From Chloroflexota bacterium (GTDB lineage: Bacteria; Chloroflexota; Limnocylindria; P2-11E): a stretch of 56,479 bases of DNA. The DNA lies in the NCBI GenBank assembly GCA_005887995.1, contig VBJD01000034.1, positions 1 to 56,479 of the forward strand. Direction: 5' to 3'. The position numbers and the translations under genes were made by a program. Positions 24,916 to 49,976 of this stretch are shown here, one piece after another (the first letter of the stretch is position 1; each line of letters starts with the position of its first letter). The notes beneath the pieces were generated by a model. The model worked only from the letters and a program-made list of their open reading frames with translations, was not told where the DNA came from and ran no database searches.

Positions 24916-24922
24916 GTTCGAG

Positions 24923-24995
24923 AGGGGCTGGCCGGAATCGAACCGGCGACACGAGCCTTAGGACGGCCCTGCTCTATCCGCTGAGCTACAGCCCC
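24923..24995 (-). tRNA. tRNA-Arg (anticodon CCU)
   Basis: The minus strand folds as GGGGCTG-TA-GCTC..GAGC-A-GGGCC-GTCCTAA-GGCTC-GTGTC-GCCGG-TTCGATT-CCGGC-CAGCCCC-T, 73 nt. Confidence 0.85.
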
Positions 24996-25030: not shown

Positions 25031-26547
25031 TTGTCACCGAGCGTCGACTGTGTCTTGATGCAACGCGTGCGCACCACGTCCCGCGTCGTCGTCCGAACGA
25101 TTCGGCGGGACATTGCCCTTGGTTTGACGGCCGGCAAGCGCGAGGAGCTGGTTACTCTCGCGCGACGTTTCGCACGCGGTCGGAAAACTCACGTCGATGC
25201 GTACTGGCACCCGCGGTTCTTCGCCACGGTGTCCGATCCTCGCCTGCGGGTCGTACAGAGCCAGCGGCGAGCCGGCTGGCTCGTTCCCGACCTCAGCGTC
25301 CATCAGAACAAGGTGTGCCTTGAGTCGAGCCTAGCGTTAGTACGAAGCTCCTGGTCCGGGACAGTCAAGGCCGCTATGCGCGTTGTCTCTCGCGATAAGG
25401 GTTGGGATAGCTCCCGGCTGTGGGCTCTTGCGACGCTGCGTTCCGTGGACCAGATTCAGGAGTGCCTCGTCACGCCGTTACGACTGGCGACGCGACAACA
25501 GCGTCGAATGCGGCGACTGCTGCTCCGGGTGCGAGGCGGGAAGCCGCGAGAATCGGGGAACCTGTGGTTCGAGCTCGACTGCAACCTGTACAGGCCATTT
25601 CATCGATCGACCGGCCATTTCCGAGGCGCCTGGCTGGCAGTGACAGGTACACGGCCAGGTCATCGCGTCAACGTGCCTCTTGCCGGATCGTCGCTCGACG
25701 TGTTTGCTTCGCGGACCGGACGCGCTGATAGCAGACCGAACATTCGTGTCGTAATCCGCGAACGCGTGACGTGTTACGTCGCCACGCGGACGCCAGTCAA
25801 GCCTCGCCGTCAAGGATGCACGCTCGGTCTGGACAAAGGTTTGAACACACTTCTCGTTTCTTCTGATGGAACAGTGAGACGGCCAGAGCGTATGGTCGCG
25901 ACGCGTCGAATCAGCTTGAAGAAATGATTGCTGCATCCGACCGACGGCGAAATCGCGCGCGTCTCGTGGCGTATGAACGATCAATCCGCAACTCGAGCCC
26001 GACCCACTCTCGACAAATCCGTCGCCACAATCTTGGCCGACGCAAACAGGTGCGCGTGCGTTCTTGCGAGTCATCCAGGCTTCGTGACTTCGTCAATCGC
26101 TCGCTGAACGAGTTGTTTCATGACACAGGCATCTTGCGTATGTACGCGGAGGACCTGACGTTTCGACCCGGTTGGCCCGGTCGAGCCATCAACCGACGCT
26201 TGGGCCGATGGTTAAAGGGTTACCTGCACCATCGTCTCATGCACAAAGCCGAGCTCAACGGTGTTGAGCTTCAGACCGTGAACGCGGCCTACACGAGTCA
26301 GACCTGCCCTCGCTGTTGGTTCGCCTCAAGGGGCAACCGACGTGGAGACAGGTTCAGATGGCGAATTGGACGCGCCTGGGACTCAAACGAAGCGTCCTTC
26401 ATGCACCAAGGTGCGTCGAGGACGTGGATCGAGTCGCGAACTGTGGCCGGCGGACGCACACGTCCGCCAGTCATCCATACGGCGGCGCTCTATCCACTCG
26501 CCGCCGCGGCCGAGAGCGTGACCGACGGTTCGACGTTTACAGCGTGA
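25031..26547 (+). mobile_element. tnpB: TnpB-like (IS200/IS605-IS607 OrfB, RuvC-type) gene, frameshifted near 25924 and with an eroded zinc finger: probable decayed element
   Basis: ORF 25031-25927 ends with the RuvC-I-like motif LGLDKGLNTLLVSSDG. ORF 25924-26547, in a different frame, has MYAEDL (RuvC-II Glu) and NAAYTSQTCPRC. The expected second CxxC and the DxDxNAA motif instead read FRWRIGRAWDSNEAS. GC is lower than the flanks, and no TnpA is adjacent. Confidence 0.6.
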
Positions 26548-35108: not shown

Positions 35109-36032
35109 TCACAGCAGGCGCGGGTCGAGCGCGTCCCGAAGCGCGTCGCCCACCAGGTTGAAGGCGAGCACTGTCGCGAGGATGGCGAGACCGGGAAACG
35201 TCGCGATCCACGGCGAGTCGATGACGTAGCTCCGGCCTGCCGACAGCATGTTGCCCCAGTCGGGGGTCGGCGGCTGCGTTCCGAGCCCGAGGAAGCTCAG
35301 GCCCGCGGTGTCGATGATCGCCGTGCCGACGTTTAGGGTCGCCTGCACGATGATCGGGGCGAGCACGTTCGGCAGAATGTGCCGCCACATGACGCGCCGG
35401 TCGCGCGCGCCGACCGCACGCGCCGCCTCGACGAAGTCGCGCGCACCGACCGACAGCACGGCGCCGCGCACGACACGGGCGTAGTTCGGGATGTACACGA
35501 TGCCGATCGCGATCATCGCCGTGAGCAGCCCCGGCCCCAGGATCGCCACGATCCCGATTGCCAGGAGCAGGTACGGGAACGCCAGCAGGACGTCCATGGC
35601 GCGCATGACCAGGCCGTCCGTCCGGCCGCGGTAGTAGGCGGCGGTCATACCGAGAGCGAGACCCACGACCAACGCGATGCTCGCGGCGATCGCGCCGGCC
35701 TGAAGAGAGACACGCGCGCCCCACACAACACGGCTGAAAACGTCACGGCCGAATTCGTCGGTTCCCATGAGGTGCTCGGCGCTCGGAGTCTCGCGCTCGA
35801 TACGGAAGTCCTGATGGATCGGGTCGTATGGACTCACTTGCGCGGCGAAAACCGCGACCAGCAGAAAGAGCACGAGCAAAGCCGCGCCCAGCATCCCGGT
35901 GCCGGAGTGCACGAACCGCCGGCGCGCCGCCGCCCACTGGGACTGCGGTGAGTTCGCGTCCTTTGCGATCCGCGACCCGACGGCGGTCGCGCGGAGGCCG
36001 GCCACCTCAGCGGTACCGAATGCGCGGGTCAA
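35109..36032 (-). CDS. Peptide/nickel ABC transporter permease (DppC/OppC family)
   Basis: It has BPD_transp_1 features and a typical DppC N-terminal segment. Confidence 0.85.
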   Translation of the reverse strand: MTRAFGTAEVAGLRATAVGSRIAKDANSPQSQWAAARRRFVHSGTGMLGAALLVLFLLVAVFAAQVSPYDPIHQDFRIERETPSAEHLMGTDEFGRDVFSRVVWGARVSLQAGAIAASIALVVGLALGMTAAYYRGRTDGLVMRAMDVLLAFPYLLLAIGIVAILGPGLLTAMIAIGIVYIPNYARVVRGAVLSVGARDFVEAARAVGARDRRVMWRHILPNVLAPIIVQATLNVGTAIIDTAGLSFLGLGTQPPTPDWGNMLSAGRSYVIDSPWIATFPGLAILATVLAFNLVGDALRDALDPRLL

Positions 36033-37011
36033 GCATCGCGTAGACCAGATCCACGATGATGCTGATCAGGGCGACGAAGATGGCGACGACGATGACCGTC
36101 GCCTGCACGACCGGGTAGTCGCGCGCGGTGATGGCGTTCAGGACGTAGCGGCCTACGCCGACCCGACCGAATACCGTCTCGGTGAGGACTGCGCCGCTGA
36201 GCAGCGCGCCGAGCTGCAGGCCAACGACGGTGACGACGGGAATGAGCGCGTTCTTGAGCGCATGACCGAGGACGACCGCCCGATCGCGGAGGCCTTTCGC
36301 CCGCGCGGTCACGAGGTATTCGCTGCCCAGGACCTCGAGCATGCTGGACCGAGCCATGCGCGAGACGATGGCCATGGTGATCGTGCTGAGCGTGATCGCG
36401 GGAAGCACGAGGTGCCAGACGACGTCCGCGAATACGGCGACGTTACCGGTGAGGAGTCCATCGACGGTGTAGAAGTGCGTCCGTGCGGGAATCTCGAGCC
36501 CGGCGCTCACGGTCCCTGAGAGCGGGAACCACTCCGCGCGCGCGCCGAGCCAGTAGATGAGCATTAGCCCGATCCAGAAAACGGGCATCGAGATCCCGAC
36601 CAGCGAGCCGATCATCGTCACGTATTCGATCAGGGTCCGCCGCCGCAGCGCGGCGAGGACCCCGGCAGGCAGGCCGACCGCGAGCGCGATCACAAGGGCG
36701 GCGATCGAGAGCTCGATGGTCGGGGCGAAGTTCTCAACCAGCTCCTGGCGGATGTCGCCGCCGGTCCGGATCGACCGGCCCAGGTCGCCGCGCACGAGGT
36801 GAGCGACGAAGTCGACGTACTGGACGGGCAGCGGCCGATTGAGACCGAGTGCCTCGCGCATCTGTTCGATCTGCGCGGCGCTTGCCTTCTCGCCGGCGAG
36901 AGCCACCGCCGGATCACCCGGGATGAGCCGCAGCGCGAGGAACACGACGGTGACGACGCCAAGCAGCACAGGGACGACGTACGCGATGCGCCGCAGGACG
37001 TACCCGCGCAC
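36007..37011 (-). CDS. Peptide/nickel ABC transporter permease (DppB/OppB family)
   Basis: It has the MRGYVLRRIAYVVPVLLGVVTVVF N-terminus and ends ...DPRIRY, the classic DppB start and end. Confidence 0.85.
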   Translation of the reverse strand: MRGYVLRRIAYVVPVLLGVVTVVFLALRLIPGDPAVALAGEKASAAQIEQMREALGLNRPLPVQYVDFVAHLVRGDLGRSIRTGGDIRQELVENFAPTIELSIAALVIALAVGLPAGVLAALRRRTLIEYVTMIGSLVGISMPVFWIGLMLIYWLGARAEWFPLSGTVSAGLEIPARTHFYTVDGLLTGNVAVFADVVWHLVLPAITLSTITMAIVSRMARSSMLEVLGSEYLVTARAKGLRDRAVVLGHALKNALIPVVTVVGLQLGALLSGAVLTETVFGRVGVGRYVLNAITARDYPVVQATVIVVAIFVALISIIVDLVYAMLDPRIRYR

Positions 37012-37042
37012 GTTCTAGGCGCTCGAGTGGTGCCGCACCTGA

Positions 37043-38653
37043 CTAACTCACGCTGACGCTGTTGAAGTAGTAGATATAGGTCGGCTGCAGTACGAAGCCC
37101 TTCACGCGCTTGCGAATCGCGACCTGCTGCTTCATGTGTCCGATGAAGAGCCACGGCGCGTCGTCGACGATCTTTGCCTCGGCTTGGTTGAACAGCGACT
37201 TCCGCTTTGCGACATCGGTCTCCTCGTTCGCCTGCTCGAGGAGCTTGTCGACCTCCGGAGTGCCATAGAAGGACGTGTTCACGCCGCCCTGGTTCTTGCT
37301 GTAGAAGAAGACACCCAGGAAGTTCTCGGGGTCGCCGGTGTCCGCCTGCCAACCGCCGAAGGCGATGTTCAGTTGACCCTGGCGCCGGATTTTCCGGTAC
37401 TCGGTCCACTCCGTCGTCTTGATCTCGCTCTTCACGCCGACCGCCTGGAAGTACTGCTGGATCGCTTCAGCGAGCTTCGCGCCCTGCGGGTTGTAGCCGC
37501 GCGGGATCGTGTACGAGTCGAGGATGATCGTGTCGCCGGTATACCCGGCGGTCTTGAGGAGAGCCTTGGCCTTCTCCGGGTCATACGGGTAGCCCTTCAG
37601 GGCGCTGTCGAAGCCCCACGAGGTGGGCGGGAGCGCGCCGACTGCGGCGACGCCCGCGCCGCTATAGAGCTTGTCCGCGAGCTCCTGCTTGTTGATCGCG
37701 TAGTTCAGGGCCTGGCGCAGCGCCTTGTTCTGGAACTGCGGCTTCTTGAGGTTGAACTCGGCCATGTTCACGTTGAGCCCGGCCTGCTCGAGCACGTCCG
37801 TCTCGGCCTTGCCCTTGACCGACGGCGCGTCCTTCGGATCGAAGGGCCAGGCGATGTCGCCTTCGCCGCGCTGGATCTTGAGGATCCGCACGGAGGCCTC
37901 GGGGACTGGCTGGAAGATGATGCGCTGCAGCTTCGCCTGGCCGCCCCAGTAGCCTTCGAAGTTCTCGACTGTGATGTGATCGTCCTTCTTCCACTCGACG
38001 AACTTGAACGGGCCGGTCCCCACCGGGTTCTCGTTGATCTTGCTGCCGAACTTTTTCAGCGCGTCCATTGAAATGACGTAGGCCGGCGGGATCGCCAGGT
38101 TCGAAAGAAGCGGCGAGAACTTCCGCCGCAGCGTGAAGCGGACGTCGAGCGGGCCGACCGCCTCGACTTTGGCTACAACGTTTCCGATGTAGTCGTCGAT
38201 GAACGGGAAGCCTCCCGCCGACTGCGCCTCCTTGAAGAGGGCGTTGTCCTTGTTGATGCTCCGGTCGAACGTGAACGCGACGGCCTCCCCGGTGAGCGCG
38301 GAACCGTCGTGGAACTTGACTCCCGACCGCAGGTGGAACGTGTACGCGAGGCCGTCGCTCGAGATGTCCCAGCGCTCGGCGAGGGCCGGCTCGATGTCGG
38401 TGCTGTTCGGCTTGTAGCGCACGAGGCCCTCGTACAACGCGGTCGTCGCGATGAACCCTTCTTGGGTGGTCATCGCCGGCGGATCGAGCTTGTCGGTGTC
38501 CCCGCCCCAGAGGAACGTCAGCGTGCCGGTGGCCGCCGCAGCCTTCCCGGTACTCGTGGCGCCCGGCTGCGCCGCAGGCGCGCACGCAGCGATGATCGTT
38601 GCTGCCCCGGCCGCACGCAGGAGGTCGCGCCGGGTCATGTTTGATGACTTCAT
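37043..38653 (-). CDS. ABC transporter substrate-binding protein, family 5 (DppA/OppA-like), Tat/lipoprotein-type signal
   Basis: It has the RRDLLRAAGAATIIAACAP signal and SBP_bac_5-like motifs. I trimmed to ATG 38653, which has GGAGG 9 nt upstream. Confidence 0.85.
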   Translation of the reverse strand: MKSSNMTRRDLLRAAGAATIIAACAPAAQPGATSTGKAAAATGTLTFLWGGDTDKLDPPAMTTQEGFIATTALYEGLVRYKPNSTDIEPALAERWDISSDGLAYTFHLRSGVKFHDGSALTGEAVAFTFDRSINKDNALFKEAQSAGGFPFIDDYIGNVVAKVEAVGPLDVRFTLRRKFSPLLSNLAIPPAYVISMDALKKFGSKINENPVGTGPFKFVEWKKDDHITVENFEGYWGGQAKLQRIIFQPVPEASVRILKIQRGEGDIAWPFDPKDAPSVKGKAETDVLEQAGLNVNMAEFNLKKPQFQNKALRQALNYAINKQELADKLYSGAGVAAVGALPPTSWGFDSALKGYPYDPEKAKALLKTAGYTGDTIILDSYTIPRGYNPQGAKLAEAIQQYFQAVGVKSEIKTTEWTEYRKIRRQGQLNIAFGGWQADTGDPENFLGVFFYSKNQGGVNTSFYGTPEVDKLLEQANEETDVAKRKSLFNQAEAKIVDDAPWLFIGHMKQQVAIRKRVKGFVLQPTYIYYFNSVSVS

Positions 38654-38703
38654 CGCATCATTCCTCCCCTGGAAACGGCCGGCAGCATAGCACCGGCCAT
38701 CGT

Positions 38704-39726
38704 TCACGCAGGCACGCCAACGCCGAGAAGAAGCCCATCCTTCTTGATCGCCGGACTCGTCACCAGAAAGAGCACGATGCCGTCGACGGATGATTCGATG
38801 GCCTCGAGCCGCTCTCCGAGCAGATCGACCATCTCGCCGAGCGCTTGACCCTTCTTGACCCGGTCACCGACGCGAACGGCGCAGCGGAAGAAGCCTTCGA
38901 CGGGAGAGCGCAACCACTCGAACCGGTTCAGCACGCGAGCCGGGGCCACGCGAGCGGGTTCGCCGTCCAGGACGCCGACGGTGCGGAGGATGTTCTGCAC
39001 GCCATCGACGTGCCGCGCGACCGCGTCTGCTTCGACCTGACCGATCCGACCGGACTCGGCGATCATCGCGGCCACCCCTCGCGCCGCCGCAGCGGCGAAG
39101 AGCAGCCCGGAGCGCTCGCCCGTGGGCATGGCCTTCACGAGCCACTCCGCGCCGTACGCGTCCGCCATCCGTCGTGCCCGTCCGTCGACGTCCGTGTTCC
39201 CCGTCTCGCGATAGGTCACGAACGGGACGAGATCCTCGATCATGTCGCCGGCGTGGAGGTCGACCGCGTACTCGCATTGCGCGATGACCTCGTTCAGCAG
39301 CCAGTGCGCGAACCGCTCGCTCCACGTGCCATCCGGCCGCCCGGGGAACACGCGGTTCATGTTGTCGTTGTCCTCTGGGTTCACGTAGATGCTCCGTTCG
39401 TAGAAGCCCGGCCGATTCAGCAGCGGGATGATCAGCACGCGGCCGCGCAGCTGCCCTGGATCGAGCATGCGGCCGAGCCGCATCGCGGCGTCGATCCCCG
39501 TGTACTCGGCGGCGTGGATCCCTGCGGTGATGAGGAACGTGGGACCCTCGCGCCGTCCGGTGATGCTAAAGAACGGCCACGAGTACTTCGCGAGGGCCGG
39601 GTCTCTGGTGAACGTGAAGTAGCCGGATCGCCGCTCGCCAGGAGGCGCCACGGTGATTGGGCCGAGATCTGTTATCGCCTCTTTGTCCTCCGTGTGCAAC
39701 GCGCGTAGGTGCGAAGGCACGACCAT
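38704..39726 (-). CDS. Succinylglutamate desuccinylase/aspartoacylase-family (M14-like zinc) deacylase
   Basis: It carries ITAGIHAAEYTG, NRVFPG and DLHAG. I trimmed to ATG 39726 to avoid overlap with the divergent gene. Confidence 0.75.
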   Translation of the reverse strand: MVVPSHLRALHTEDKEAITDLGPITVAPPGERRSGYFTFTRDPALAKYSWPFFSITGRREGPTFLITAGIHAAEYTGIDAAMRLGRMLDPGQLRGRVLIIPLLNRPGFYERSIYVNPEDNDNMNRVFPGRPDGTWSERFAHWLLNEVIAQCEYAVDLHAGDMIEDLVPFVTYRETGNTDVDGRARRMADAYGAEWLVKAMPTGERSGLLFAAAAARGVAAMIAESGRIGQVEADAVARHVDGVQNILRTVGVLDGEPARVAPARVLNRFEWLRSPVEGFFRCAVRVGDRVKKGQALGEMVDLLGERLEAIESSVDGIVLFLVTSPAIKKDGLLLGVGVPA

Positions 39727-39775
39727 ACATCGAGTGAGCCTTTCCCTTTTCGACAAGCCCGTGCCGCTAGCATCG

Positions 39776-41332
39776 ATGCAGGTGCGCCGCCTGATCGCCG
39801 CTATTGCCCTCGCGCTCGGGATCGCGTGCAACGCGGCCGGCCCGAGCGCACCCTCCGGCGCGCCGTCCGCGGGCGCGAACGCGCTTGCCGCGGACCGCAT
39901 CCAGTTGCTCCACACCGACGACATTCACGGCCGCCTCGACTACGAGGTCGTGAAGAGCGGCAGCACGAGCTTCAATCAGGGCGGGATGGCGATGGTCGCC
40001 TCGCAGGTGCGATCGCTGCGTTCGCGCGCGATGCCCGAGCGGTCGCTGCTCGTCGACGCGGGGGACGCGTGGCAGGGCACGTTCATCTCGAACGCGAACA
40101 AGGGCGAGCTGGTCACGAAGGCGATGACCCTCATGAAGTACGACGCGATGGCCGTCGGCAACCACGACTTCGACTGGGGCCAGGATGTCCTCGCGCAGCG
40201 CGCGAAGGAGGCGTCGTTCCCGTTCCTCGCGACCAACGTCGTCGAGACGAAGACCGGGAAGCTGCCCTCATACCTCAAGCCGTACGTGATCAAGGACACG
40301 GGTCTCGCGAAGGTCGGCATCCTCGGCATCACGAACCCGCAGGGCAACACGATCGTCAAGGCCACGAGCGTGGCCGGCCTCCAGTTCGGGCCCGCGACGC
40401 AGGTGCAGCCGTTCCTCTCCGAGCTGCAGACGCAGGCGGACATCATCGTCGTCGTCGCGCACATCGGATCAGCCGACGCGGCGAAGCTCGCGCGCGACGT
40501 TCCCGGGATCGATGTCATCGTCGCGGGCCATGATCACCAGCCGATCCAGACGGGGCGCGTCGAAGGAAGGACGACGATCGTCGACTCAGGCGCGTACACG
40601 CAGTACCTCGGCCGGCTCGAGATCATCGTCGACCCGGCCACGCACAAGATGAAGGACGCGATACGCGCGGGCGAGCTCACCGCGGTCGCCGCGTCGCAGA
40701 CGCTGCAGCCGGATCCCGAGATCGCCGCGATCGTCGAATCACGCCGCGCGGAGACCGAGAAGTACACCTCGCGCGTCGTCGGCACGATCAAGAACGATCT
40801 CGACAACCCGCGAGATGAGTGCGGCCTCGGGAACATGATCACTGACGGGATCCTCGAGTACGGCAGGCAGCAGGGATGGAGGACCGACGTCGCCTTCTAC
40901 AACGCCGCCGGCGTCCGCGCGCCGCTCAAGGCGGGCCCGGTGACGTACGGCCAGCTCTACCAGGTGCTGCCTTTCGAGAACACGATCGTGAATGTCGACC
41001 TCACCGGCGCACAGCTGAAGGAGGTGTTCGAGGACGCATCGGGCCGAGCGGGCCGGCTGCAGATCGGCGGCGGGAAGTGGGTCTACCGCTTCCTGAACAA
41101 CCCGAGCGAGCGCGTCCTCGAGGCGACGATCGGCGGCGCGCCGCTGGACCTGGCGCGGCTCTATCACGTCGCGACGATCGATTACCTCCTGCTCGGCGGC
41201 GACGGACACACCTGGTTCGGCAAGGGCACGAACGTCGTCTACGGCGATATCGAGGTCGATGCGGTCGCCGCCTATATGACCGCGCACTCGCCGCTCGACC
41301 CCAAGGTCGAGGGCCGGATCACCCAGCGATAA
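39776..41332 (+). CDS. Bifunctional metallophosphatase/5'-nucleotidase (UshA family), lipoprotein signal
   Basis: It has the lipobox LALGIAC and the motifs HTDDIHG, DAGD, GNHDF and AGHDH. Confidence 0.85.
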   Translation: MQVRRLIAAIALALGIACNAAGPSAPSGAPSAGANALAADRIQLLHTDDIHGRLDYEVVKSGSTSFNQGGMAMVASQVRSLRSRAMPERSLLVDAGDAWQGTFISNANKGELVTKAMTLMKYDAMAVGNHDFDWGQDVLAQRAKEASFPFLATNVVETKTGKLPSYLKPYVIKDTGLAKVGILGITNPQGNTIVKATSVAGLQFGPATQVQPFLSELQTQADIIVVVAHIGSADAAKLARDVPGIDVIVAGHDHQPIQTGRVEGRTTIVDSGAYTQYLGRLEIIVDPATHKMKDAIRAGELTAVAASQTLQPDPEIAAIVESRRAETEKYTSRVVGTIKNDLDNPRDECGLGNMITDGILEYGRQQGWRTDVAFYNAAGVRAPLKAGPVTYGQLYQVLPFENTIVNVDLTGAQLKEVFEDASGRAGRLQIGGGKWVYRFLNNPSERVLEATIGGAPLDLARLYHVATIDYLLLGGDGHTWFGKGTNVVYGDIEVDAVAAYMTAHSPLDPKVEGRITQR

Positions 41333-42207: not shown

Positions 42208-42795
42208 ATGGCGATCGAAGAGCGTCCCGCCGAGTCAAAGGGCGTCCCGATCGACTTCGAACAGGACGTCATTCAGCGCCGTCCGGTGAGCTCGCAGGCA
42301 GGCCTCGCCGGCGAGGACATCCCCATTCGCAGATCGGTCATCGCCGAAGACGACAACGTCGTCTTCACGACCGTGACGAATCTCATCAACTGGGCGCGGT
42401 CGCGTTCGCCCTGGCCGCTCGGCTACGGCCTCGCGTGCTGCGCGATCGAGATGTTCGCGAGCGTCGCGCCGCAGCATGACCTCTCGCGTTTCGGGGCGGA
42501 GGTGTTCCGTTCGAGCCCGCGCCAGGCGGACGTGATGATCGTGGCCGGGACCGTGACCCACAAGATGGCGCCCCGCCTCCGCCGGCTCTACGAACAGATG
42601 CCCGAGCCGAAGTGGGTCATCGCCATGGGCAACTGCGCATCGAGCGGCGGTGAGTTCTGGGACAGCTACTCGACCCTGCAGGGCGTCGACACGGTCGTGC
42701 CGGTCGATGTCTATGTTCCGGGCTGCCCGCCGCGTCCCGAAGCGCTGACCGAAGGCGTCCTCCGGCTGCGCGAAAAGATCTCCAGGGGCGGCTAG
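42208..42795 (+). CDS. nuoB: NADH-quinone oxidoreductase subunit B
   Basis: It carries [18 protein letters not shown] and VPGCPPRPE, the ligand pattern for cluster N2. Confidence 0.9.
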
Positions 42796-42796
42796 T

Positions 42797-42892
42797 GCGA
42801 ACGAGGAGCGCGGGGGCAGGGGCCCCCGTTCAGCGCGCGACAGCACGCGTGACCGCGACGAGGGAGCAGCCTTGAGCGTGTCTCCCGTGCGC
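42797..42892 (+). repeat. Intercistronic repeat copy A (hairpin CGGGGGC-AGGG-GCCCCCG at 42811-42828, then GTTCAGCG..., SD, nuoD start)
   Basis: It aligns by eye with 44060-44158 over ~90 nt with few mismatches and one small indel. Confidence 0.8.
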
Positions 42893-44059
42893 AGCACAGA
42901 GATCGGGAGAGAGGGCGCGCTCGTCGACCTTCCGATCATCGAAACAGAGGAAGGGCTCCAGACCGAAGAGCTCATCCTCAACATGGGGCCGCAGCATCCG
43001 TCGACGCACGGCGTCCTGCGTCTGGTGCTGAAGATGTCCGGCGAGAAGGTCATCGAGTGCATCCCGGTGATGGGGTATCTCCATCGAGGCCTCGAGAAGA
43101 TCTTCGAGTGGCGCACGTACCACCAGGGCATCCGCTACGCGGACCAAGCCGACTACGTCTCGAACATGCTCAACGAACACGCATACGCCGGGGCGATGGA
43201 GGCGATCGGCGGCATCGACGTGCCGCGCCGCGCCGAGTACATCCGCGTGATCGTGGACGAGATGAGCCGGTGCGCCGCGCACCTCATCTGGCTCGGCACG
43301 TACGGCCTCGACGTCGGTGCGACGACACCGTTCCTCTGGTGCCTACGCGACCGCGAAGAGATCCTCGACATGTTCGAGGAAGTCTGTGGCTCGCGCATGA
43401 ACTTCAACTATTACCGCCCGGGGGGCGTGCTCTACGACCTGCCGCAGGGCTGGCTCGGGAAGCTCGAGCGGTTCCTGGATCGCTTCGCGGACCGCATCGA
43501 GGCTGACTACATGCGCATCCTCGAAGGAAACGAGATCTTCCTCGAGCGGACCATCGGCGTCGGCACGATCCCCGCTCACGTCGCGAAGCAGTACGGCATC
43601 ACCGGCCCGATGCTCCGCGCGTCGGGCGTCGACTGGGACCTCCGGCGTGACCGTCCGTACGGGATCTACCCCGAGCTGAAGACGCTGAGGCCAGTCGTGT
43701 TCCCCGACGGCGACGCGTTCGCACGCTTCAAGGTGCGCGTCGGCGAGATGCGGCTTGCGATCGCGCTCATCCGCGAGTGCATCGCGAACTTGCCGGGAGG
43801 CGCGGTGCGCGCTCGGCTCGGCCACGTGTGGAAGTGCCCGAAGGGCGAGGCGTACTACACCGTCGAGGGCGCGAAGGGCGAGGTCGGGATCTACATGATC
43901 AGCGACGGACGCAGTCCGAACCCCTTCCGCGCGAAAATGCGCGGGCCATCCTTCAACAACCTGCAGATCGTCCCGTGGCTGCTCAAGGGACGCCTCGTCG
44001 CGGACGTCGTCGCGATCCTCGGATCGCTCGACTTCGTGTTGGGTGAGGTAGACAGATGA
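42872..44059 (+). CDS. nuoD: NADH-quinone oxidoreductase subunit D (short form; no NiFe-ligand cysteines)
   Basis: It reads NMGPQHPSTHGVLRL, GYLHRGLEK and ...SLDFVLGEVDR. The TTG start has GAGGGAG 5 nt upstream. Confidence 0.9.
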   Translation: MSVSPVRSTEIGREGALVDLPIIETEEGLQTEELILNMGPQHPSTHGVLRLVLKMSGEKVIECIPVMGYLHRGLEKIFEWRTYHQGIRYADQADYVSNMLNEHAYAGAMEAIGGIDVPRRAEYIRVIVDEMSRCAAHLIWLGTYGLDVGATTPFLWCLRDREEILDMFEEVCGSRMNFNYYRPGGVLYDLPQGWLGKLERFLDRFADRIEADYMRILEGNEIFLERTIGVGTIPAHVAKQYGITGPMLRASGVDWDLRRDRPYGIYPELKTLRPVVFPDGDAFARFKVRVGEMRLAIALIRECIANLPGGAVRARLGHVWKCPKGEAYYTVEGAKGEVGIYMISDGRSPNPFRAKMRGPSFNNLQIVPWLLKGRLVADVVAILGSLDFVLGEVDR

Positions 44060-44158
44060 GCGAGCGACGAGCGCAGGGGCAGGGGCCCCTGTTCAGCGAG
44101 CGGCAGCGAGCGTGGCCGCGAGGAGTGAGAACCACCAGCCCTGAGCGTGTCTCGCGTC
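44060..44158 (+). repeat. Intercistronic repeat copy B (hairpin CAGGGGC-AGGG-GCCCCTG at 44074-44091; ends with a ghost copy of the nuoD start region)
   Basis: See copy A. Positions 44136-44157 (cagccCTGagcgtgtctcgcgt) mirror 42867-42888 (cagccTTGagcgtgtctcccgt). Confidence 0.8.
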
Positions 44159-44210
44159 CAGGGGTAGGGGCCCCTGTTCAGCGAGCGACGCGAGCGCGGC
44201 GCGAGATTGA
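44159..44210 (+). repeat. Intercistronic repeat copy C (hairpin CAGGGGT-AGGG-GCCCCTG at 44159-44176), directly upstream of the NuoI/E-like cistron
   Basis: It has the same hairpin plus the GTTCAGCGAGCG core. A G-U wobble sits at the closing pair. Confidence 0.75.
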
Positions 44211-44238
44211 GGTGGATCGCTAACGTGGTGATCCGATA

Positions 44239-44958
44239 GTGCTCGGCATCGTCGACGGCATGGTGCGGACGCTGCAGCACCTCTTCCGCGCGCGTCTCGT
44301 GACGCGGAAGTACCCGTACGAGAAGCGCGAGTTGCCTGAGCGATCGCGCGGCCTCATCGCCCTGCTCCTCGAACCCGAGACGAGCATCTTCAAGTGCGAG
44401 TCGTGCCTCATGTGCGAGAAGGCGTGTCCGCCGCGCGCGATCTCGATCTCGTACAAGTTCCGCAACGGCTTCCGCCGCCGGCCGATGCTCGCGCCGCGCG
44501 CCTCCTATTACCGCATTCGCATGGTGCAGACCGCCCCGTACGGCGATCGGCGGCCGATGTCGACGGCGGTCGTCACCGTCCCCGCGGAGGCGGAGCGCGG
44601 CCTCGATACGAAGAAGGTCGACGAGATCCTGCGCGGTGAGCCCGCGGGGCTCGATCGCATGACGCGCGTTCTCTATCGCACGCACGATGCGTACGGCTAC
44701 CTTCCGTGGACCGCCGCGGAGCGCATCGCCGCCGAATTCGGCAAGACGATGACCGACGTCTACACCGCGGCGTCACTTCTCGCGAACTTCCGCGGTGCCC
44801 CTGAGGGACAGGGGACCGCGGTGCCGCGCGGTGGGCGGAAGTTCACCGGCAACCTCGGCATCGCCGGCGAGTGGCCGGCCGCGTCGCCGGCGCCTGCGCA
44901 CGACACGCTGCGCGAAGACGAGGTGAAGCACGTGCTCGAGCCGACGTATGCCCGCTAA
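44239..44958 (+). CDS. NuoI-like (single 4Fe-4S motif) fused to a NuoE-like N-terminal helical segment that lacks the 2Fe-2S domain
   Basis: The N-terminus GMVRTLQHLFRARLVTRKYPYEKRELPERSRG...CESCLMCEKACP is NuoI-like but has only one CxxCxxCxxxCP. The C-terminal half VDEILRG...RVLYRTHDAYGYLPWTAAERIAAEFGKTMTDVYTAASLLANF is NuoE-like and contains no cysteine. Confidence 0.6.
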   Translation: MLGIVDGMVRTLQHLFRARLVTRKYPYEKRELPERSRGLIALLLEPETSIFKCESCLMCEKACPPRAISISYKFRNGFRRRPMLAPRASYYRIRMVQTAPYGDRRPMSTAVVTVPAEAERGLDTKKVDEILRGEPAGLDRMTRVLYRTHDAYGYLPWTAAERIAAEFGKTMTDVYTAASLLANFRGAPEGQGTAVPRGGRKFTGNLGIAGEWPAASPAPAHDTLREDEVKHVLEPTYAR

Positions 44959-46153
44959 CGCCACGCTGCTGAACGGCGCGCCGCCGACCGGCGGCGATGT
45001 CCGCGCGCGGCCGCCGGACGAGATCGTCGCGATGATCGAGAAGAGCGATCTCCGCGGGCGCGGCGGCGCGGGCTACCCGCTCGCGAAGAAGATCGCGGCC
45101 GTCCGCGATGCGGCAAAGGCGACCGGACGTGCCCCGCTCGTCATCGCGAACGCGTACGACGCCGACCCCGACAGTCCACTCTCGCGAACGCTCATCAAGC
45201 ACTCGCCGCTCGGTGTCCTCCGCGGGACGATGATCGCGGCGGTCGCGGTCGGCGCGCGCGAAGCGATCGTGTACCTGCATCCGAAGGCCGAGGACGAGCG
45301 CCGTGCGCTCGAGAGCGAGCTCGCGAAGCTCGAGGGCTCGCTCGGCGGCGTGCTCATCTCCGTCGCGCTCGGCCCAGGTGGCTTCATGGGCGGCGAAGAG
45401 AGCGCGCTCATGAACGTGCTCGAGTCGAAGCGCGCGATGGCGCGCCAGCGCCCGCCGTATCCGGCCAGCCTCGGCGTGGAGCAGCGTCCGACACTGATTT
45501 CGAGCGCCGAGACGCTCGCGTGGCTACCGCACATCCTCGAGCGCGGCGTGCGCGCCGACTCGAAGCTCGTGTCCGTCACGGGCGCGGTTCGTTCGCCGGG
45601 CGTGTACGAGGTCGCGCTCGGCGCGACGCTCGCCGAGATCCTCGACGCAGCGGGTGGTGTCATCGGCGAGCTCAAGGGCATCCACGTTGGCGGGCCGACC
45701 GGAGGGATCCTATCGGCGACGCGTCGGGGGACGCGCCTCGACTTCGACGAGCTGCGCGCGGCGGGGACGCACATGGGCTCGGGGCAGATCCGCGCGATCG
45801 CGGAGGGCACCTGCATCGTCGCCGAGGCGGCGAAGCTTTTCGCGTACCTCGCGAAGGAGACCTGCGGCATCTGCGTGCCGTGCCGCGTCGGCACGGCGCG
45901 AGTGCAGGGGATCCTCGAGAGCGTGCAGAGCCAGCTCGGGCGCGACGAAGATACGAAGTGGCTCGGCGAGCTCGGCGATCACATGGAGCAGTTCTCGCTC
46001 TGCGGCTTCGGCATCACCGCGCCGTCGATCCTCCGCACCACGATGTATGAGTTCGCCGAGGACTACCGCGCGCACATCGAAGATCACCGCTGCCCGACCG
46101 GCTCGTGCAAGCCCGTCCGCGCGCGGCGCTACGAGACGATGGTCCAGCCATGA
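44948..46153 (+). CDS. nuoF: NADH-quinone oxidoreductase subunit F-like flavoprotein (FMN/NADH site, N3-type 4Fe-4S)
   Basis: It carries LRGRGGAGYPLAKK, GGEESALMNVLES, ETCGICVPCRVG and SLCGFG. Confidence 0.85.
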   Translation: MPANATLLNGAPPTGGDVRARPPDEIVAMIEKSDLRGRGGAGYPLAKKIAAVRDAAKATGRAPLVIANAYDADPDSPLSRTLIKHSPLGVLRGTMIAAVAVGAREAIVYLHPKAEDERRALESELAKLEGSLGGVLISVALGPGGFMGGEESALMNVLESKRAMARQRPPYPASLGVEQRPTLISSAETLAWLPHILERGVRADSKLVSVTGAVRSPGVYEVALGATLAEILDAAGGVIGELKGIHVGGPTGGILSATRRGTRLDFDELRAAGTHMGSGQIRAIAEGTCIVAEAAKLFAYLAKETCGICVPCRVGTARVQGILESVQSQLGRDEDTKWLGELGDHMEQFSLCGFGITAPSILRTTMYEFAEDYRAHIEDHRCPTGSCKPVRARRYETMVQP

Positions 46154-48564
46154 GTCTGCTCGAGCGTTATACGCAGCCCGCGGAAGCGCAGATCCCGACG
46201 GTGTCGCACCAGGGCGACATCCCGGCGGGCCAGCCCACGTGCACGATCTGGATCGACGGCCAGGAGGTCACGGCCGTCGCGGGCGAGGCGATCCTTCGCG
46301 CGGCGCAGCGCGCCGGCTTCAACATCCCGACGCTCTGCGACGACGAGAAGCTCGCACCCGCCGCCGCGTGCCGTATGTGTCTGGTGAACATCGATGGCTA
46401 CGACCGGCCGATGCCGTCGTGCCACCTCGCGGTCGAGCCGGGCATGAAGATCACCGCGACCGAGGACGGCCTCTTCAAGATGCGCCGGCAGAACCTCGAG
46501 TACATCCTCAGCGACCACAACGCGTACTGCATGCCGCCGTGCCAGATCGGCTGCCCGACGCACATCGACATCCCGGGCTACCTCGAGCTCATGGCCAAGG
46601 GGCAGCACGTCGAGGCCGCGCGCCTGGTGAAGGAAGTGCTGCCGTTCCCATACGCACTCGGGCTGGTGTGTCCGCGCCCGTGCCAGGAGGTGTGCCGCCG
46701 CGGTCTCGTCGAGGAGGAGATCGCGATCTGCCAGTGCCACGGGTACACGGGCGAGATGGTCATGGAGATGGAGAAGGCGCCGACGCCATTTCCGCAGCTG
46801 CCCGCGACCGGCAAGCGCGTCGCGGTCATCGGCGCGGGTCCCGCGGGGCTCACTTGCGCGTACTACGTCGCCCTGGCGGGCCACGCGGTGACGGTGTTCG
46901 ACATGATGGAGAAGCAGGGCGGGATGCTCCGCTACGGCATCCCCGAGTACCGCCTGCCAAAGGTGAAGCTCGACAAGGAGCTCAACTCCGTCTGGCAGCT
47001 CCGCGACGCGGAGTTCAAGGGGAACATGAAGCTCGGGCGCGACTTCTCCATCGATGACCTGGTCGCGCAGGGCTACGACTCCGTCTTCATCGGCATCGGC
47101 GCGTGGTCGAGCAACGACCTGCCCATCCCGGGCATCGACCTGCCGGGGGTCATCGAGGCGATCAACTACCTGAACCAGAACGCGAGCGGCGATCCGGTGC
47201 CGGTCGGCAAGGGCTCGCGTGTCGTCGTCATGGGCGGCGGGTTCACGACCTTCGACTGCGCGCGCACCTCGCGCCGCCTCGGCGCCGAGGTCACCGTTGT
47301 CTACCGCCGCTCGCGCAAGGAGATGGGCGCGCATTACAGCGAGGTCGACGACGCCGAGCACGAGGGCATCAAGCTCGAGTTCTTCGGTTCGCCCGTGAAG
47401 ATCCACGAGAAGGACGGACGCGTCGGCGGCGTCGAGTTCCAGCGCATGGCGCTCGGCGAGCCGGATGCCTCGGGTCGCCGCCGGCCCGTGCCGATCGAGG
47501 GGGCGAACTTCACCATCGACTGCGACGTCGTCATCCCGGCGATCGGGCAGCTGCCGGTGCTCGACTGGTTCGAGCGCTCGCCGGGCATCCGCAAGACGCG
47601 GCGCGAGACGATCGTCGCGAACGCCGCGCTCATGACCGATCGGCCGGGCGTGTTCTCAGGCGGCGACTGCCAGATGGGGACGGTCACCGTCATCCAGGCG
47701 GTCGCGCAGGGAAAGCTCGCGGCGAAGGCGATCGATCGCTACCTCGCGGGTGACGACATGTCCCTCGTCGCCTCGGAGATCCAAGAGGAGGAGCGCGTCC
47801 CCGAGCTCATCGACATCGTTCCCTATAAGCCCGAGGAGCCGCAGGTGCGTATGCCGTTCCTGCCGTTCGAGCAGCGCGTGCGCTCCTTCGAGCTCATCGA
47901 GGGCGGCTACGACAAGGCCGGCGCCGAGAAGGAAGCCGCGCGCTGCCTGCAGTGCGTCTGCCCGGACGTCGGCCGCTGCCACCTGCAGCGGCTGTCACTG
48001 GAGCACGGCCTCACCGACAACCGCTTCCACCGCGCCGAGCCGGTGGACTACCACGACTATGAGTACGACTTCAGCCATGACTTCATCCTTCGCGACCTCA
48101 ACAAGTGCATCAACTGCACGCAGTGCGTGCGCATCTGCCGCGACGTCATCGGCGCGAACTGCTACGGCCTCATGGGTGGTGGATACGACTCGATCGTCAC
48201 GACGCCGTGGAACGTGTCGCTCTCGTACACCGACTGCGTCTCGTGCGGCGCGTGCGCGGAGACGTGCCCGACGGGCGCGCTCATGATGCGCGAGCGCGAC
48301 CTGGAGACGTACGAGCTCGACATCGTGCGGTGCATCTACTGCGGCGACTGCGTCGAGGTGTGCCCGCACGGCGCGCTCGGCGAGACGCCGAACTTCGAGC
48401 TCTCGACCTACACGCGGTTCGGTAGGACCGTCCTCGCGAAGGAGGAGCTCGCCGTCGCGCGCACGTGGAAGCCGAGTGAGGACATCCCCACGAACGGCGA
48501 TGGCAAGGGCGGCGTGCGTCCGCCCGAGGTCCGTCCGCCCGCGCCGCCGCGCTGGAGCGCGTAG
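46150..48564 (+). CDS. Fusion protein: NuoG-type N-terminal 2Fe-2S domain + GltD-type (glutamate synthase small-subunit-like) FAD/NAD(P)H module + NuoG/ferredoxin-type 4Fe-4S domains
   Basis: The 2Fe-2S part is TLCDDEKLAPAAACRMCLV...SC. The GltD part is CMPPCQIGCP, VCPRPCQEVC and GKRVAVIGAGPAGL...GGMLRYGIPEYRLPK. The 4Fe-4S motifs are CINCTQCVRIC, CVSCGACAETCPTGAL and CIYCGDCVEVCPHGAL. Its ATGA start overlaps the nuoF stop. Confidence 0.8.
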   Translation: MSLLERYTQPAEAQIPTVSHQGDIPAGQPTCTIWIDGQEVTAVAGEAILRAAQRAGFNIPTLCDDEKLAPAAACRMCLVNIDGYDRPMPSCHLAVEPGMKITATEDGLFKMRRQNLEYILSDHNAYCMPPCQIGCPTHIDIPGYLELMAKGQHVEAARLVKEVLPFPYALGLVCPRPCQEVCRRGLVEEEIAICQCHGYTGEMVMEMEKAPTPFPQLPATGKRVAVIGAGPAGLTCAYYVALAGHAVTVFDMMEKQGGMLRYGIPEYRLPKVKLDKELNSVWQLRDAEFKGNMKLGRDFSIDDLVAQGYDSVFIGIGAWSSNDLPIPGIDLPGVIEAINYLNQNASGDPVPVGKGSRVVVMGGGFTTFDCARTSRRLGAEVTVVYRRSRKEMGAHYSEVDDAEHEGIKLEFFGSPVKIHEKDGRVGGVEFQRMALGEPDASGRRRPVPIEGANFTIDCDVVIPAIGQLPVLDWFERSPGIRKTRRETIVANAALMTDRPGVFSGGDCQMGTVTVIQAVAQGKLAAKAIDRYLAGDDMSLVASEIQEEERVPELIDIVPYKPEEPQVRMPFLPFEQRVRSFELIEGGYDKAGAEKEAARCLQCVCPDVGRCHLQRLSLEHGLTDNRFHRAEPVDYHDYEYDFSHDFILRDLNKCINCTQCVRICRDVIGANCYGLMGGGYDSIVTTPWNVSLSYTDCVSCGACAETCPTGALMMRERDLETYELDIVRCIYCGDCVEVCPHGALGETPNFELSTYTRFGRTVLAKEELAVARTWKPSEDIPTNGDGKGGVRPPEVRPPAPPRWSA

Positions 48565-48635
48565 CCGCGCCCACGCTCGCGGAACGTCTTCTCGCGCGGA
48601 TACGCGCGCGTGGTGCGATCTCGTTCGCTGACTAC

Positions 48636-49676
48636 ATGGACGCCGCGCTCTACGACCCCGACCACGGCTATTACTCGACGCGCGCTTCGATCGGCTTCGA
48701 GGGCGACTACCTCACAGCACCAGATCTCGGTCCGCACCTCGGTCGCGCGCTCTCACGAGCGATGGCGGACTTCTGGCAGCAGCTCGGAAAGCCGCACTCG
48801 TGGGATCTCGTCGAGGCTGGCGCGGGGAGGGGGACGCTGCTGCGGGATGTTCTCGCGTCGCTTGAGCGTGAGCGACCCGATGCCGCGCGGGGCGTGCGGC
48901 CGGCGATCGTCGAGGTGTCGCAGCACCTTCGCGCCCAGCAGTCCTCGGCACTCGACGGCCGCGACATCCGTTGGGCGTCCGACCCGCGCGCGCTCGGGCC
49001 GATCGCGGGCGTGCTCTACGCGAACGAGATCCTCGATGCGTTCCCGGTGCACGTCCTCGTGCGGACGACAGACGGCGCGCGTGAGGTCTTCGTCAGCGTG
49101 CACGAAGATCGTCTCGTCGAGACGCTGCGCCCGCCGAACCCGCCGGAACTTCGCTACCGCGTGCCCGAAGCGGTGCCGATGGGCGGACGGTGGGAGGTGA
49201 GCCCGCGAGCCGAAGGCTGGGTCGCTGGGCTCGCAGCCGCGATGACGCGAGGGTACGTGCTCTTCATCGATTACGGCGGAGACGAGCCGGAGCTGCTGAC
49301 GCGCTTCGGCAGTGGGACCGTCCGTGGCTTTGCGCGCCATCGACTCATCGCCGACCCGTTCACCGAGCCCGGGGAGCACGACCTGACGGCGAGCGTGAAC
49401 TTCACCGCGGTCCGACGCGCCGCGGAGGGCGCGGGCTTCACGTTCGCAGGCCGGACGTCGCAGCGCGAGGCGTTGCTTGCGCTCGGCATCCGCGACGTCG
49501 CCTCGCGCCCGACGACGCCGATCGACCGGCTGCGCGATCTCGGCCGCCGTTCGGCGATCGACACATTGCTCGATCCAACCGGCTTCGGCGCGTTCCAGGT
49601 CGTCTGCTTCGCGAAGGACGCGCCCGAGGAAGGGCTACGCCTGTTCGCAACCCGTCAGGGCAGCGTGCAGAGGTAG
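48636..49676 (+). CDS. MidA/NDUFAF7-family (DUF185) SAM-dependent methyltransferase; the true start is probably upstream of the first ATG
   Basis: It carries YMDAALYDPDHGYY, DLVEAGAGRGTL and ANEILDAFPVH. Family-typical N-terminal residues (LAERLLARIRARGAISFADY) are encoded in frame at 48576-48635, with no ATG/GTG/TTG upstream. Confidence 0.75.
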   Translation: MDAALYDPDHGYYSTRASIGFEGDYLTAPDLGPHLGRALSRAMADFWQQLGKPHSWDLVEAGAGRGTLLRDVLASLERERPDAARGVRPAIVEVSQHLRAQQSSALDGRDIRWASDPRALGPIAGVLYANEILDAFPVHVLVRTTDGAREVFVSVHEDRLVETLRPPNPPELRYRVPEAVPMGGRWEVSPRAEGWVAGLAAAMTRGYVLFIDYGGDEPELLTRFGSGTVRGFARHRLIADPFTEPGEHDLTASVNFTAVRRAAEGAGFTFAGRTSQREALLALGIRDVASRPTTPIDRLRDLGRRSAIDTLLDPTGFGAFQVVCFAKDAPEEGLRLFATRQGSVQR

Positions 49677-49927
49677 CCACTGGGACGGACGATGAACGTC
49701 CCGCCGTACGCGTGCTCGCAGACGGGTTGACCGACGACGAACGCGTGATAGGGAAGGCTCCCGCCCTCGCAGTGATAGAAGTTCTCGTCCGCGTGCGGGA
49801 TGAAGTTCCCGCCCGAGTGCTCGCAGACCTCCTGCGCCGGCCGGAACGTCGGCGGCGCGGCGAGCGCCGATGTCGTCGACGAAAGCAACAATGCCGCCAC
49901 TGCGAGACCAGGAAGTGCCCGTCGCAT
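49655..49927 (-). CDS. Small secreted Cys-containing protein with an internal duplication
   Basis: It has the signal MRRALPGLAVAALLLSSTTSALA. The duplicated motif is VCEHSGGNF...YHCEG and VCEHAYGGTF...YLC. Confidence 0.45.
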   Translation of the reverse strand: MRRALPGLAVAALLLSSTTSALAAPPTFRPAQEVCEHSGGNFIPHADENFYHCEGGSLPYHAFVVGQPVCEHAYGGTFIVRPSGYLCTLP

Positions 49928-49976
49928 GCCCACCGTGTCCTCCACCTCCGCGTAGCGCGGATGGCGGGAGTATGGC

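Follow-up and report, generated by a model that had tools for sequence, protein, structure and literature searches.

Gene content of a Chloroflexota operon points to a two-operon complex I with an Nfn/Stn-type N-module

Complex I is generally regarded as specific for NADH alone and as having a fixed set of cofactors. 'Nuo-Bfu' complexes of 14 subunits have been predicted in Deferribacteres, Proteobacteria, Planctomycetes and Nitrospirae (PMC9304861). In the Bfu family, a true BfuB subunit carries the clusters B2-B5 and BfuC the cluster C1 (PMC9304861), and the minimal site for electron bifurcation consists of B1, flavin mononucleotide (FMN) and C1 (PMC11829005). In the related NfnABC, electrons travel from flavin adenine dinucleotide (FAD) via A7, A6, A3, A2, A1 and B1 to FMN, and a branch from A2 to A4 and A5 is a dead end (PMC11829005). 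Many Chloroflexi, in turn, encode 13 of the 14 complex I subunits, with NuoG alone lacking (Spero et al. 2015, PMC4453560). Here, we describe a six-gene operon in a 56.5-kb stretch of Chloroflexota DNA with ~67% G+C, in the following referred to as the window. This operon probably encodes the peripheral arm (N plus Q modules) of one membrane-bound complex I variant, which in the class Limnocylindria is divided between two operons.

The operon is built of six open reading frames (ORFs), which run in one direction and fill positions 42208-49676. Their G+C content at third codon positions (0.84-0.93) is typical of real genes in a genome of 67% G+C. They encode NuoB, NuoD, a chimera of NuoI and NuoE, a NuoF-like flavoprotein, a large protein resembling NfnA and StnC, and a methyltransferase of the MidA/NDUFAF7 family (Table 1); Pfam and NCBIfam profiles agree on all six assignments. 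The chimera and NuoF genes overlap by 11 nucleotides, and the latter shares an ATGA with the gene for the 804-residue NfnA-like protein. In its genes and their overlaps the locus is as described in the original prediction, which had been made from the sequence alone. This had also pointed out the lack of nuoA, C, H, J and K, none of which we find in the cluster or in the flanks of the window. Furthermore, membrane nuo genes are absent from ~17 kb upstream and 7 kb downstream of the operon in the window, and from within 10 kb in 83 related loci, some of which are cited below by number.

The implication that the complex works without these subunits is not supported, as they are encoded, together with NuoL, M and N, in a second Limnocylindria operon. 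When NuoH from a more distant relative (L086, see below) was used as a query, many Limnocylindria NuoH sequences were found at 53-57% identity, and 16 loci of the Limnocylindria type (L088-L103) contain nuoA-C-H-J-K-L-M(-N) without B, D, I, E, F or G. The nuoA-C-H-J-K-L-M-N set is the exact complement of the window operon. Both are present in one metagenome-assembled genome (MAG), GCA_036564905.1, whose contig DATCOD010000141.1 (L041) carries B-D-chimera-F-NfnA and whose contig DATCOD010000022.1 (L096) carries A-C-H-J-K-L.

In more distant relatives, the two gene sets are joined. L104 (GCA_034667005.1) has a single operon with the order nuoA-B-C-D-H-[I'E]-F-[NfnA-like]-J-K-L-M-N, in which the chimera (I'E) comprises 279, the NuoF-like protein 451 and the NfnA-like protein 872 residues; there is no separate nuoI, nuoE or nuoG. 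L085 shows the same gene order, with MidA 9 kb upstream, and L086 shows D-H-I'E-F-NfnA-like. In L106, the order A-B-C-D-H-[truncated chimera of 215 residues]-F-NfnA-like is followed by unrelated genes. This locus is the nearest relative of both Limnocylindria operons, with identities of 77% for NuoB, 58% for NuoD, 59% for the NfnA-like protein, 69% for NuoA and 58% for NuoH. The complementary gene content, the MAG with both operons, the single operons in relatives and the common nearest relative all argue for a complex I encoded by two operons. So do the tiling of NuoI, the purifying selection and the retained quinone-site, N2 and GltD residues that are described in the following. A profile of the distant chimeras matches at least 2,830 proteins, and those with an organism name are all from Chloroflexota. 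A tblastn search of the I'E fusion against the PLSDB plasmids gave partial matches of the NuoE/FdsG type only.

Two observations on these gene sets may be added. In L085 and L087, several nuo genes, including that for the NfnA-like protein, are called in pieces; since the same operon is intact in L104, the breaks look like assembly indels and not biology. In the window itself, three divergent antiporter-like genes stand alone after a tRNA-Pro (20895-24915, + strand) in a region of strongly negative AT skew, with no nuoH, J or K nearby. They encode a protein of 436 residues that weakly resembles the N-terminal half of NuoL, a NuoM-like protein of 469 and a NuoN-like protein of 435 residues. We considered them as the missing NuoL, M and N, but rejected this, as they share only 26-32% identity with the corresponding subunits encoded by the partner operon of Limnocylindria; by this comparison, they appear to be a separate paralogous module.

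The most unusual feature shared by the window operon and its relatives is a divided NuoI. The first ~80 residues of the chimera match the first two-thirds of NuoI models: residues 1-82 correspond to the N-terminal half of NuoI with the first CxxCxxCxxxCP motif, and residues 4-81 align to residues 30-105 of NDUFS8 in solved structures. This motif, CESCLMCEKACP, contains all cysteines of the chimera, none of which lies past residue 63. Its cysteines are invariant in distant family members, and the surrounding NuoI-like segment (residues 21-60) shows ~99% conservation among 79 sequences. The original prediction had overlooked the second half of NuoI, which forms the C-terminal end of the NfnA-like protein. 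There are three CxxCxxCxxxCP motifs in this protein, of which motifs 1 and 2 align with the 2x[4Fe-4S] domain of NfnA; motif 3 lies beyond the NfnA-homologous region. Within its last 84 residues, positions 1-37 align to NDUFS8 109-145 and positions 1-76 to Thermus Nqo9 91-168, the latter including the NuoI-specific tail YELDIVRCIYCGDCVEVCPHGALGETPNFELSTYT. The same C-terminus is matched by positions 69-111 of the NuoI model TIGR01971.

Together, the two fusions tile NuoI, and the same tiling is obtained against E. coli NuoI. The window, L086, L085 and L104 each contain both halves. The two motifs that define NuoI (N6a, N6b) are thus present, but with their flanking NuoI-specific segments they are spread over two polypeptides. 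In the 2x[4Fe-4S] ferredoxin fold, three of the four cysteines that bind a cluster belong to one motif, and the remaining one is supplied by the other motif. Given this swapping and the orphan motifs on two chains, we infer that the NuoI domain would be assembled in trans.

The NfnA-like protein, the most conserved one of the operon, stands in the place of NuoG. Over residues 33-732 it is collinear with NfnA from Caldicellulosiruptor saccharolyticus (9bov_A, 8e-161), StnC from Sporomusa ovata (8oh5_C, 2e-153) and an archaeal NfnA (9n5u_A), and it shares their domain order: an N-terminal 2Fe-2S domain, an inserted NfnL/GltD-like FAD module and 4Fe-4S domains. Its cluster sites comprise the 2Fe-2S domain, two 4Fe-4S clusters in the GltD module, a C-x2-C-x-C-x5-C cluster and a 2x[4Fe-4S] domain. 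The protein had been proposed as a fusion of NuoG and GltD; the GltD module is indeed present, but the collinearity with solved NfnA and StnC means that the fusion is not a new one. The alignment to NfnA stops at residue 732 of 804, where the NuoI-like tail follows in place of an Fdh/NuoG-like C-terminal domain. Likewise, the NuoG model TIGR01973 yields 118 bits against a cut-off of 470 and matches the N-terminal 2Fe-2S and 4Fe-4S parts only, and profile and structure searches found no molybdopterin-like domain. All motifs reported for this protein, that is CMPPCQIGCP, CPRPCQEVC, GAGPAG, GGGFT and VYRR, were recovered in a motif search, as were those of NuoB and NuoD discussed below.

These motifs matter for the question of whether the GltD-like module is active. 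One could envisage an ordinary NADH:quinone complex I, in which the module is merely a structural or iron-sulfur (Fe-S) relic without NADPH turnover. Even in NfnABC, a part of the Fe-S chain has been regarded as a remnant without function (PMC11829005), and where NfnA and StnC have a lysine as ligand of cluster A7 (AELKRF and AQLKSF), all complex-I-linked versions have a histidine (CQCHGY, FSHRY and DSHRY; window, L086, L085 and L104), with the CQCH of the window protein at residues 194-197. However, the folds for FAD (GAGPAG) and for the second dinucleotide (GGGFT) as well as the 2'-phosphate-type motif (VYRR) are all intact in the alignment to NfnA. Furthermore, conservation of the module in windows of 20 residues amounts to 73-99% among 42 sequences from Limnocylindria, and none of the lineages seen has lost it, not even the distant L104 type. 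A relic therefore appears unlikely to us. As judged from the alignment, the lysine-to-histidine exchange at A7 may tune the cluster next to the FAD.

At the other end of the proposed electron route, NuoB carries the complete set of N2 cysteines (CC77/78, C143 and C173) in the motifs CCAIE (residues 77-81), GNCAS (141-145) and PGCPP (171-175). It has a poorly conserved N-terminal extension of ~47 residues; residues 61-180 are 96-100% conserved in 58 sequences, except for residues 81-100 at 69%. NuoD contains GPQHPSTHGVLRL (residues 39-51), ADY (93-95) and a C-terminal GEVDR, and keeps the quinone-site residues His46 (THG) and Tyr95 (ADY). Its best solved relatives are NdhH (6hum_H, 1e-105) and Nqo4 (2fug_4). 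As noted in the original prediction, NuoD is about 25 residues short, with a gap of 24 residues after LPGG relative to NdhH. Since the NF008974 and FpoD models align to it end to end in one stretch, this appears to be the normal length of a known short subtype. A motif search detected no CxxC pair in NuoD, which therefore lacks the NiFe ligands of group 4 [NiFe] hydrogenases, and we rejected a reading as a NiFe hydrogenase.

The conserved quinone site also speaks to the possibility of a stand-alone soluble enzyme, in which cytoplasmic NuoB, NuoD, chimera, NuoF-like and NfnA-like proteins would act without a membrane arm, and N2 or NuoD would reduce a soluble acceptor. For such an enzyme, one would need to accept that the quinone-site histidine and tyrosine and the N-terminal NuoI segment are conserved, that an A-C-H-J-K-L-M-N operon lacking precisely B, D and I exists in the same class and the same MAG, and that relatives place nuoH directly between nuoD and the chimera gene. 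We consider this quite improbable, even though the operon has the appearance of a self-contained, translationally coupled unit and no membrane nuo gene lies near it.

The NuoF-like and NuoE-like parts bear on the probable origin of the N-module and on its likely chemistry. Among solved structures, the NuoF-like protein is best matched by NfnB (9bov_B, 2.6e-66), HydB and StnB; canonical NuoF chains follow at ~1e-49. It has the FMN/NADH site motifs and the N3/B1 4Fe-4S cluster, but covers residues 136-526 of the 584 of NfnB only. This makes it a trimmed BfuB core without the N-terminal thioredoxin-like and C-terminal ferredoxin domains, in which a CPxxxC remnant is left. Pfam detects no Fer4 domain in it, so that the BfuB clusters B2-B5 are lacking. 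In the chimera, residues ~129-191 form the N-terminal helical domain of NuoE, with residues 141-191 aligning to HydC, and the Pfam family 2Fe-2S_thioredx is matched over positions 3-65 of 145 only. The fusion of NuoI to a NuoE without its 2Fe-2S domain, as originally predicted, is thus corroborated, and 77 of 79 orthologues have no cysteine past residue 90. With this thioredoxin-like domain, both the N1a cluster of complex I and the C1 cluster of BfuC are absent. In an exhaustive search of 50%-identity representatives, the longer of the distant chimeras (271-282 residues) keep the whole 2Fe-2S domain.

The original prediction had combined an Nfn/Bfu-like module with NuoB and NuoD. We can retain an Nfn/Stn-type module joined to an N2/quinone module, but not the Bfu label with its implied bifurcation, as the BfuB and BfuC clusters are absent. 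A bifurcating or confurcating enzyme of the 'Nuo-Bfu' type would couple NAD(H), NADP(H) and/or ferredoxin at a flavin before quinone reduction. It would agree with the N-module subunits being closest to NfnABC/Stn subunits of the Bfu family, and such complexes are predicted in other phyla (PMC9304861). However, B2-B5 and C1, both required in Bfu enzymes, are absent from the trimmed NuoF-like core and the chimera, and we therefore regard this mechanism as very unlikely.

Hundreds of close relatives of the chimera are found at 77-90% identity, and the named ones belong to Chloroflexota, Candidatus Limnocylindria. In a scan of one genome per species, 292 genomes contained a relative, the best 80 of which were examined. 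They are Limnocylindria or unclassified Chloroflexota, except for four contigs with other labels. These (L007, L032, L033 and L039; chimera identity 78-83%) were deposited as Acidiferrales, Bathyarchaeia, Saccharimonadales and Udaeobacter MAGs and are most likely binning errors. In tblastn searches, the gene order from an upstream inositol-monophosphatase (IMPase)-family gene through NuoB, NuoD, chimera, NuoF and NfnA-like to MidA is kept wherever the contig is long enough, and all matches are full length. The operon is therefore intact in about 80 species-level Limnocylindria genomes, and no frameshifts were found in the six proteins across 36-79 distinct sequences. Given these full-length and conserved proteins, the locus is under strong purifying selection. 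A decaying paralogue of a standard nuo operon, which the original prediction had named as one of the cases that would speak against it and which might be suspected from the eight lacking nuo genes, the truncated NuoE, the halved NuoI and several missed NCBIfam equivalog cut-offs, can be dismissed as next to impossible with six full-length genes at 58-91% identity and with the halved NuoI segment as the most conserved part of the chimera.

Some Limnocylindria have extra genes inside the operon, which are located between NuoF and the NfnA-like protein (L010, L022), between the latter and MidA (L021, L031, L033) or before NuoB (L002). They comprise a 222-residue ORF with cysteine pairs and hydrophobic stretches, a protein of 200-270 residues with the phosphatase motif HCxAGxDRTG, and an HNH endonuclease.

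For a complex I with a peripheral arm encoded by the window operon, homology suggests the following route. The NuoF-like subunit would oxidize NADH at its FMN and the GltD-like module NADPH at its FAD, and both flavins would feed the Fe-S chain of the NfnA-like subunit. Electrons would leave this chain via the NuoI-type pair of 4Fe-4S clusters, to which the chimera contributes motif 1 and the C-terminus of the NfnA-like subunit motif 2. For this exit toward the split NuoI, the obvious candidate is the dead-end branch known from NfnABC. From there, electrons would pass to N2 on NuoB and on to quinone in a pocket formed by NuoD, NuoB and NuoH, and this would drive the pumping of protons by the membrane arm, the genes of which lie in the other operon. 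With regard to its origin, the N-module may have been taken from an Nfn/Stn-type enzyme, when an E-F-G' cassette was inserted into the nuoI gene of an 11-subunit-type operon. Such an insertion would account for the gene order H-[I_N::E]-F-[G'::I_C]-J. In a later phase of trimming, the bifurcation-specific clusters and, in the lineage of the window, N1a would have been lost.

The full claim is accordingly broader than that of a two-operon complex I. It would see in these genes an undescribed and widespread proton-pumping complex I of Chloroflexota, a working dual-nucleotide enzyme (FMN/NADH and FAD/NADPH) with an independently captured Nfn/Stn-type N-module, a two-chain NuoI and, in Limnocylindria and some relatives, no N1a. 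To this claim we give about even credence.

Several points weigh against the two-operon arrangement and, with it, against this broader claim. All data come from MAGs; of the window's own genome, the search covered the 56 kb of the window, and for NuoA, C, H, J, K and L-N the evidence is the partner operon of Limnocylindria relatives and of one MAG. The latter is the single case of co-occurrence in one genome and depends on the binning of that MAG. The same genomes may also contain a further, canonical complex I. The two-chain 2x[4Fe-4S] domain is deduced from sequence, and a single-sequence AlphaFold2 model of the artificially joined NuoI halves was uninformative, with a predicted local distance difference test (pLDDT) value of 33.6. 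The cluster that would pass electrons from the NfnA-type chain to the split NuoI is a candidate only, and we know of no precedent for the loss of N1a in a complex I that carries an N-module. More generally, assembly, interaction, both nucleotide activities and the electron route are proposed here on the basis of sequence comparisons, which themselves establish the domain identities, gene orders, conservation, complementary gene content and tiling of NuoI.

The last gene of the operon may be connected to the assembly of this complex. Solved relatives of MidA are 1zkd, 4f3n and the NDUFAF7 homologue 5ztz, and its gene comes after that of the NfnA-like protein in 36 related loci. NuoD has a conserved arginine, Arg50, in the sequence GVLRL, which we take to be the position of the arginine targeted by NDUFAF7 in NDUFS2. 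By analogy, MidA would act on Arg50 during assembly, most likely by methylating it.

Table 1. Genes and selected features of the operon in the window, with the identity of the encoded proteins across related loci (tblastn)
Feature	Positions	Strand	Description	Identity across loci
NuoB	42208-42795	+	195 residues; PF01058 2e-30; TIGR01957 236.9 bits (cut-off 142.7)	71-90% (full-length matches)
NuoD	42872-44059	+	395 residues; PF00346; NF004739 425 bits (cut-off 360)	76-89%
NuoI/NuoE chimera	44239-44958	+	239 residues; Pfam and NCBIfam	70-85%
NuoI motif 1 on chimera	44395-44430	+	CESCLMCEKACP; motif search	
NuoF-like flavoprotein	44948-46153	+	401 residues; Pfam Complex1_51K, SLBB, NADH_4Fe-4S	58-73%
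NfnA/StnC-like protein	46150-48564	+	804 residues from ATG (819 from upstream GTG); Pfam Fer2_4, Fer4_20, Pyr_redox_2, 4Fe-4S domains	79-91%
GltD/NfnL-like FAD and NAD(P)H module of NfnA-like protein	46528-47748	+	residues 127-533; Pfam Fer4_20, Pyr_redox_2	
NuoI C-terminal half	48304-48564	+	motif 2 (CIYCGDCVEVCP), then PNFELSTYTR tail; fused to NfnA-like protein; structure alignments, TIGR01971	
MidA/NDUFAF7-family methyltransferase	48636-49676	+	346 residues; PF02636 (Methyltransf_28) 1.8e-56	62-81%

The neighbours of the operon are unrelated to it. Upstream lie genes for a major facilitator superfamily (MFS) transporter, two ATP-binding cassette (ABC) exporters, a peptide ABC transporter, a 5'-nucleotidase and the IMPase-family protein; small ORFs and a tRNA lie downstream. 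The IMPase-family gene ends 22 nucleotides before nuoB and, given this distance and a synteny that is kept in nearly all loci, co-transcription of the two is possible. In the relatives L001 and L003, the order MFS-ABC-ABC-5'-nucleotidase-IMPase-NuoB is contiguous. The window has four extra genes between the ABC exporters and the 5'-nucleotidase (35109-39924, - strand), which encode two peptide permeases, a family-5 solute-binding protein and an AstE/AspA-like protein.

The gaps on either side of nuoD contain a GC-rich palindromic element, AGGGGCCCCTGTTCAGCGAGCG, in three copies (42818-42839, 44081-44102 and 44166-44187), where none would be expected by chance; they are confined to the NuoB-NuoD and NuoD-chimera gaps. 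The second of these gaps is a 180-nucleotide spacer that can fold into a long hairpin (-88 kcal/mol, z = -2.8). The corresponding genes abut or overlap in L001-L003 and are separated by a few to tens of bases in most other loci, so that the palindrome-bearing spacer looks like a small insertion in the window's genome, similar to repetitive extragenic palindromic (REP) elements or miniature inverted-repeat transposable elements (MITEs). A scan for promoters and terminators between 39.4 and 50.5 kb gave no more matches than expected by chance.

Two further regions of the window contain tRNA calls. Downstream of the operon, ARAGORN reports a 90-nucleotide tRNA-Glu (49826-49915, - strand), which is below the Rfam gathering score and overlaps a 96-residue ORF (49655-49945); this call is probably false. 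Further upstream, a Cas12f/TnpB-like ORF with a TNB domain adjoins a tRNA-Arg(CCT) (24922-24995 and 25924-26547) and is preceded by a 298-residue ORF without a family match. The region of this TNB-domain ORF may be the remnant of a mobile element.

We found no description of the present complex I variant in the open-access literature and bioRxiv, although earlier work may exist elsewhere. If our interpretation is correct, it would constitute a NAD(P)H:quinone oxidoreductase of the respiratory chain that in itself connects the NADH pool with that of NADPH. With an NADPH-type flavin as a second entry site, such an enzyme would alter our view of how the respiratory and biosynthetic redox pools are linked in Chloroflexota that are abundant in soil and freshwater. 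A complex I without N1a would provide a natural test of the purpose of this cluster, and a two-chain NuoI would represent an unusual assembly route for a ferredoxin-like domain. The order H-[I_N::E]-F-[G'::I_C]-J, in turn, could be read as a record of the capture of an N-module by an 11-subunit ancestor. There are also consequences for annotation: automated pipelines would score such genomes as lacking NuoG, NuoI and NuoE, and the window operon would be miscounted as an incomplete complex I. The variant may thereby explain part of the NuoG-less, 13-subunit pattern of Chloroflexi mentioned above.

How does this system compare with those that have been characterized? With the canonical 14-subunit complex I (Thermus thermophilus, 4HEA; E. 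coli, 7AWT), it shares a NuoB with N2, a NuoD with the quinone site, a NuoF-type FMN/N3 subunit and the motifs of NuoI, as well as NuoC and the membrane subunits A, H and J-N, which are here found in the partner operon. Unlike in canonical complex I, NuoG is replaced by an NfnA-type subunit with a FAD/NAD(P)H module and without a molybdopterin-like domain, NuoI is split over two fusions, the N1a domain is lost, the genes are divided between two operons and a gene for MidA is included in one of them. The N-module is most similar to that of the NfnABC and StnABC transhydrogenases (9BOV/9BP5; 8OH5; archaeal 9N5U), whose large subunit is collinear with the one described here over ~700 residues and whose NfnB is closest to the flavoprotein core. 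In contrast to these, it lacks the Fdh-like domain of the A subunit, B2-B5 and C1, has a histidine at the A7 lysine position, and is attached to NuoB and NuoD and, by inference, to a membrane arm.

Other systems resemble it in single aspects. The predicted Nuo-Bfu complexes likewise have a Bfu-related ABC module in the middle of a nuo operon in place of NuoEFG, but their bifurcating BfuBC core is complete and a GltD module is absent, whereas the variant described here combines a trimmed core with an Nfn-type A subunit and a split NuoI. In HydABCSL from Acetomicrobium mobile (7T2R), homologues of NuoB (HydS) and NuoD (HydL) are connected to a Bfu ABC module. This enzyme is soluble and bifurcating and has a NiFe site in HydL, whereas the NuoD of the window has no NiFe ligands and its partner genes include NuoH and antiporter-like subunits. 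In Ca. Actinomarina, an 11-subunit operon is followed by NDUFAF7 (bioRxiv 10.1101/2021.02.01.429150), in the same way as MidA follows the nuo genes here, but it has no N-module. Finally, the NDH-1 of cyanobacteria and chloroplasts also has its subunit genes spread over several loci, and its NdhH is the best solved match to the NuoD of the window; in contrast to the complex proposed here, NDH-1 has no module of the NuoEFG type and receives its electrons from ferredoxin.

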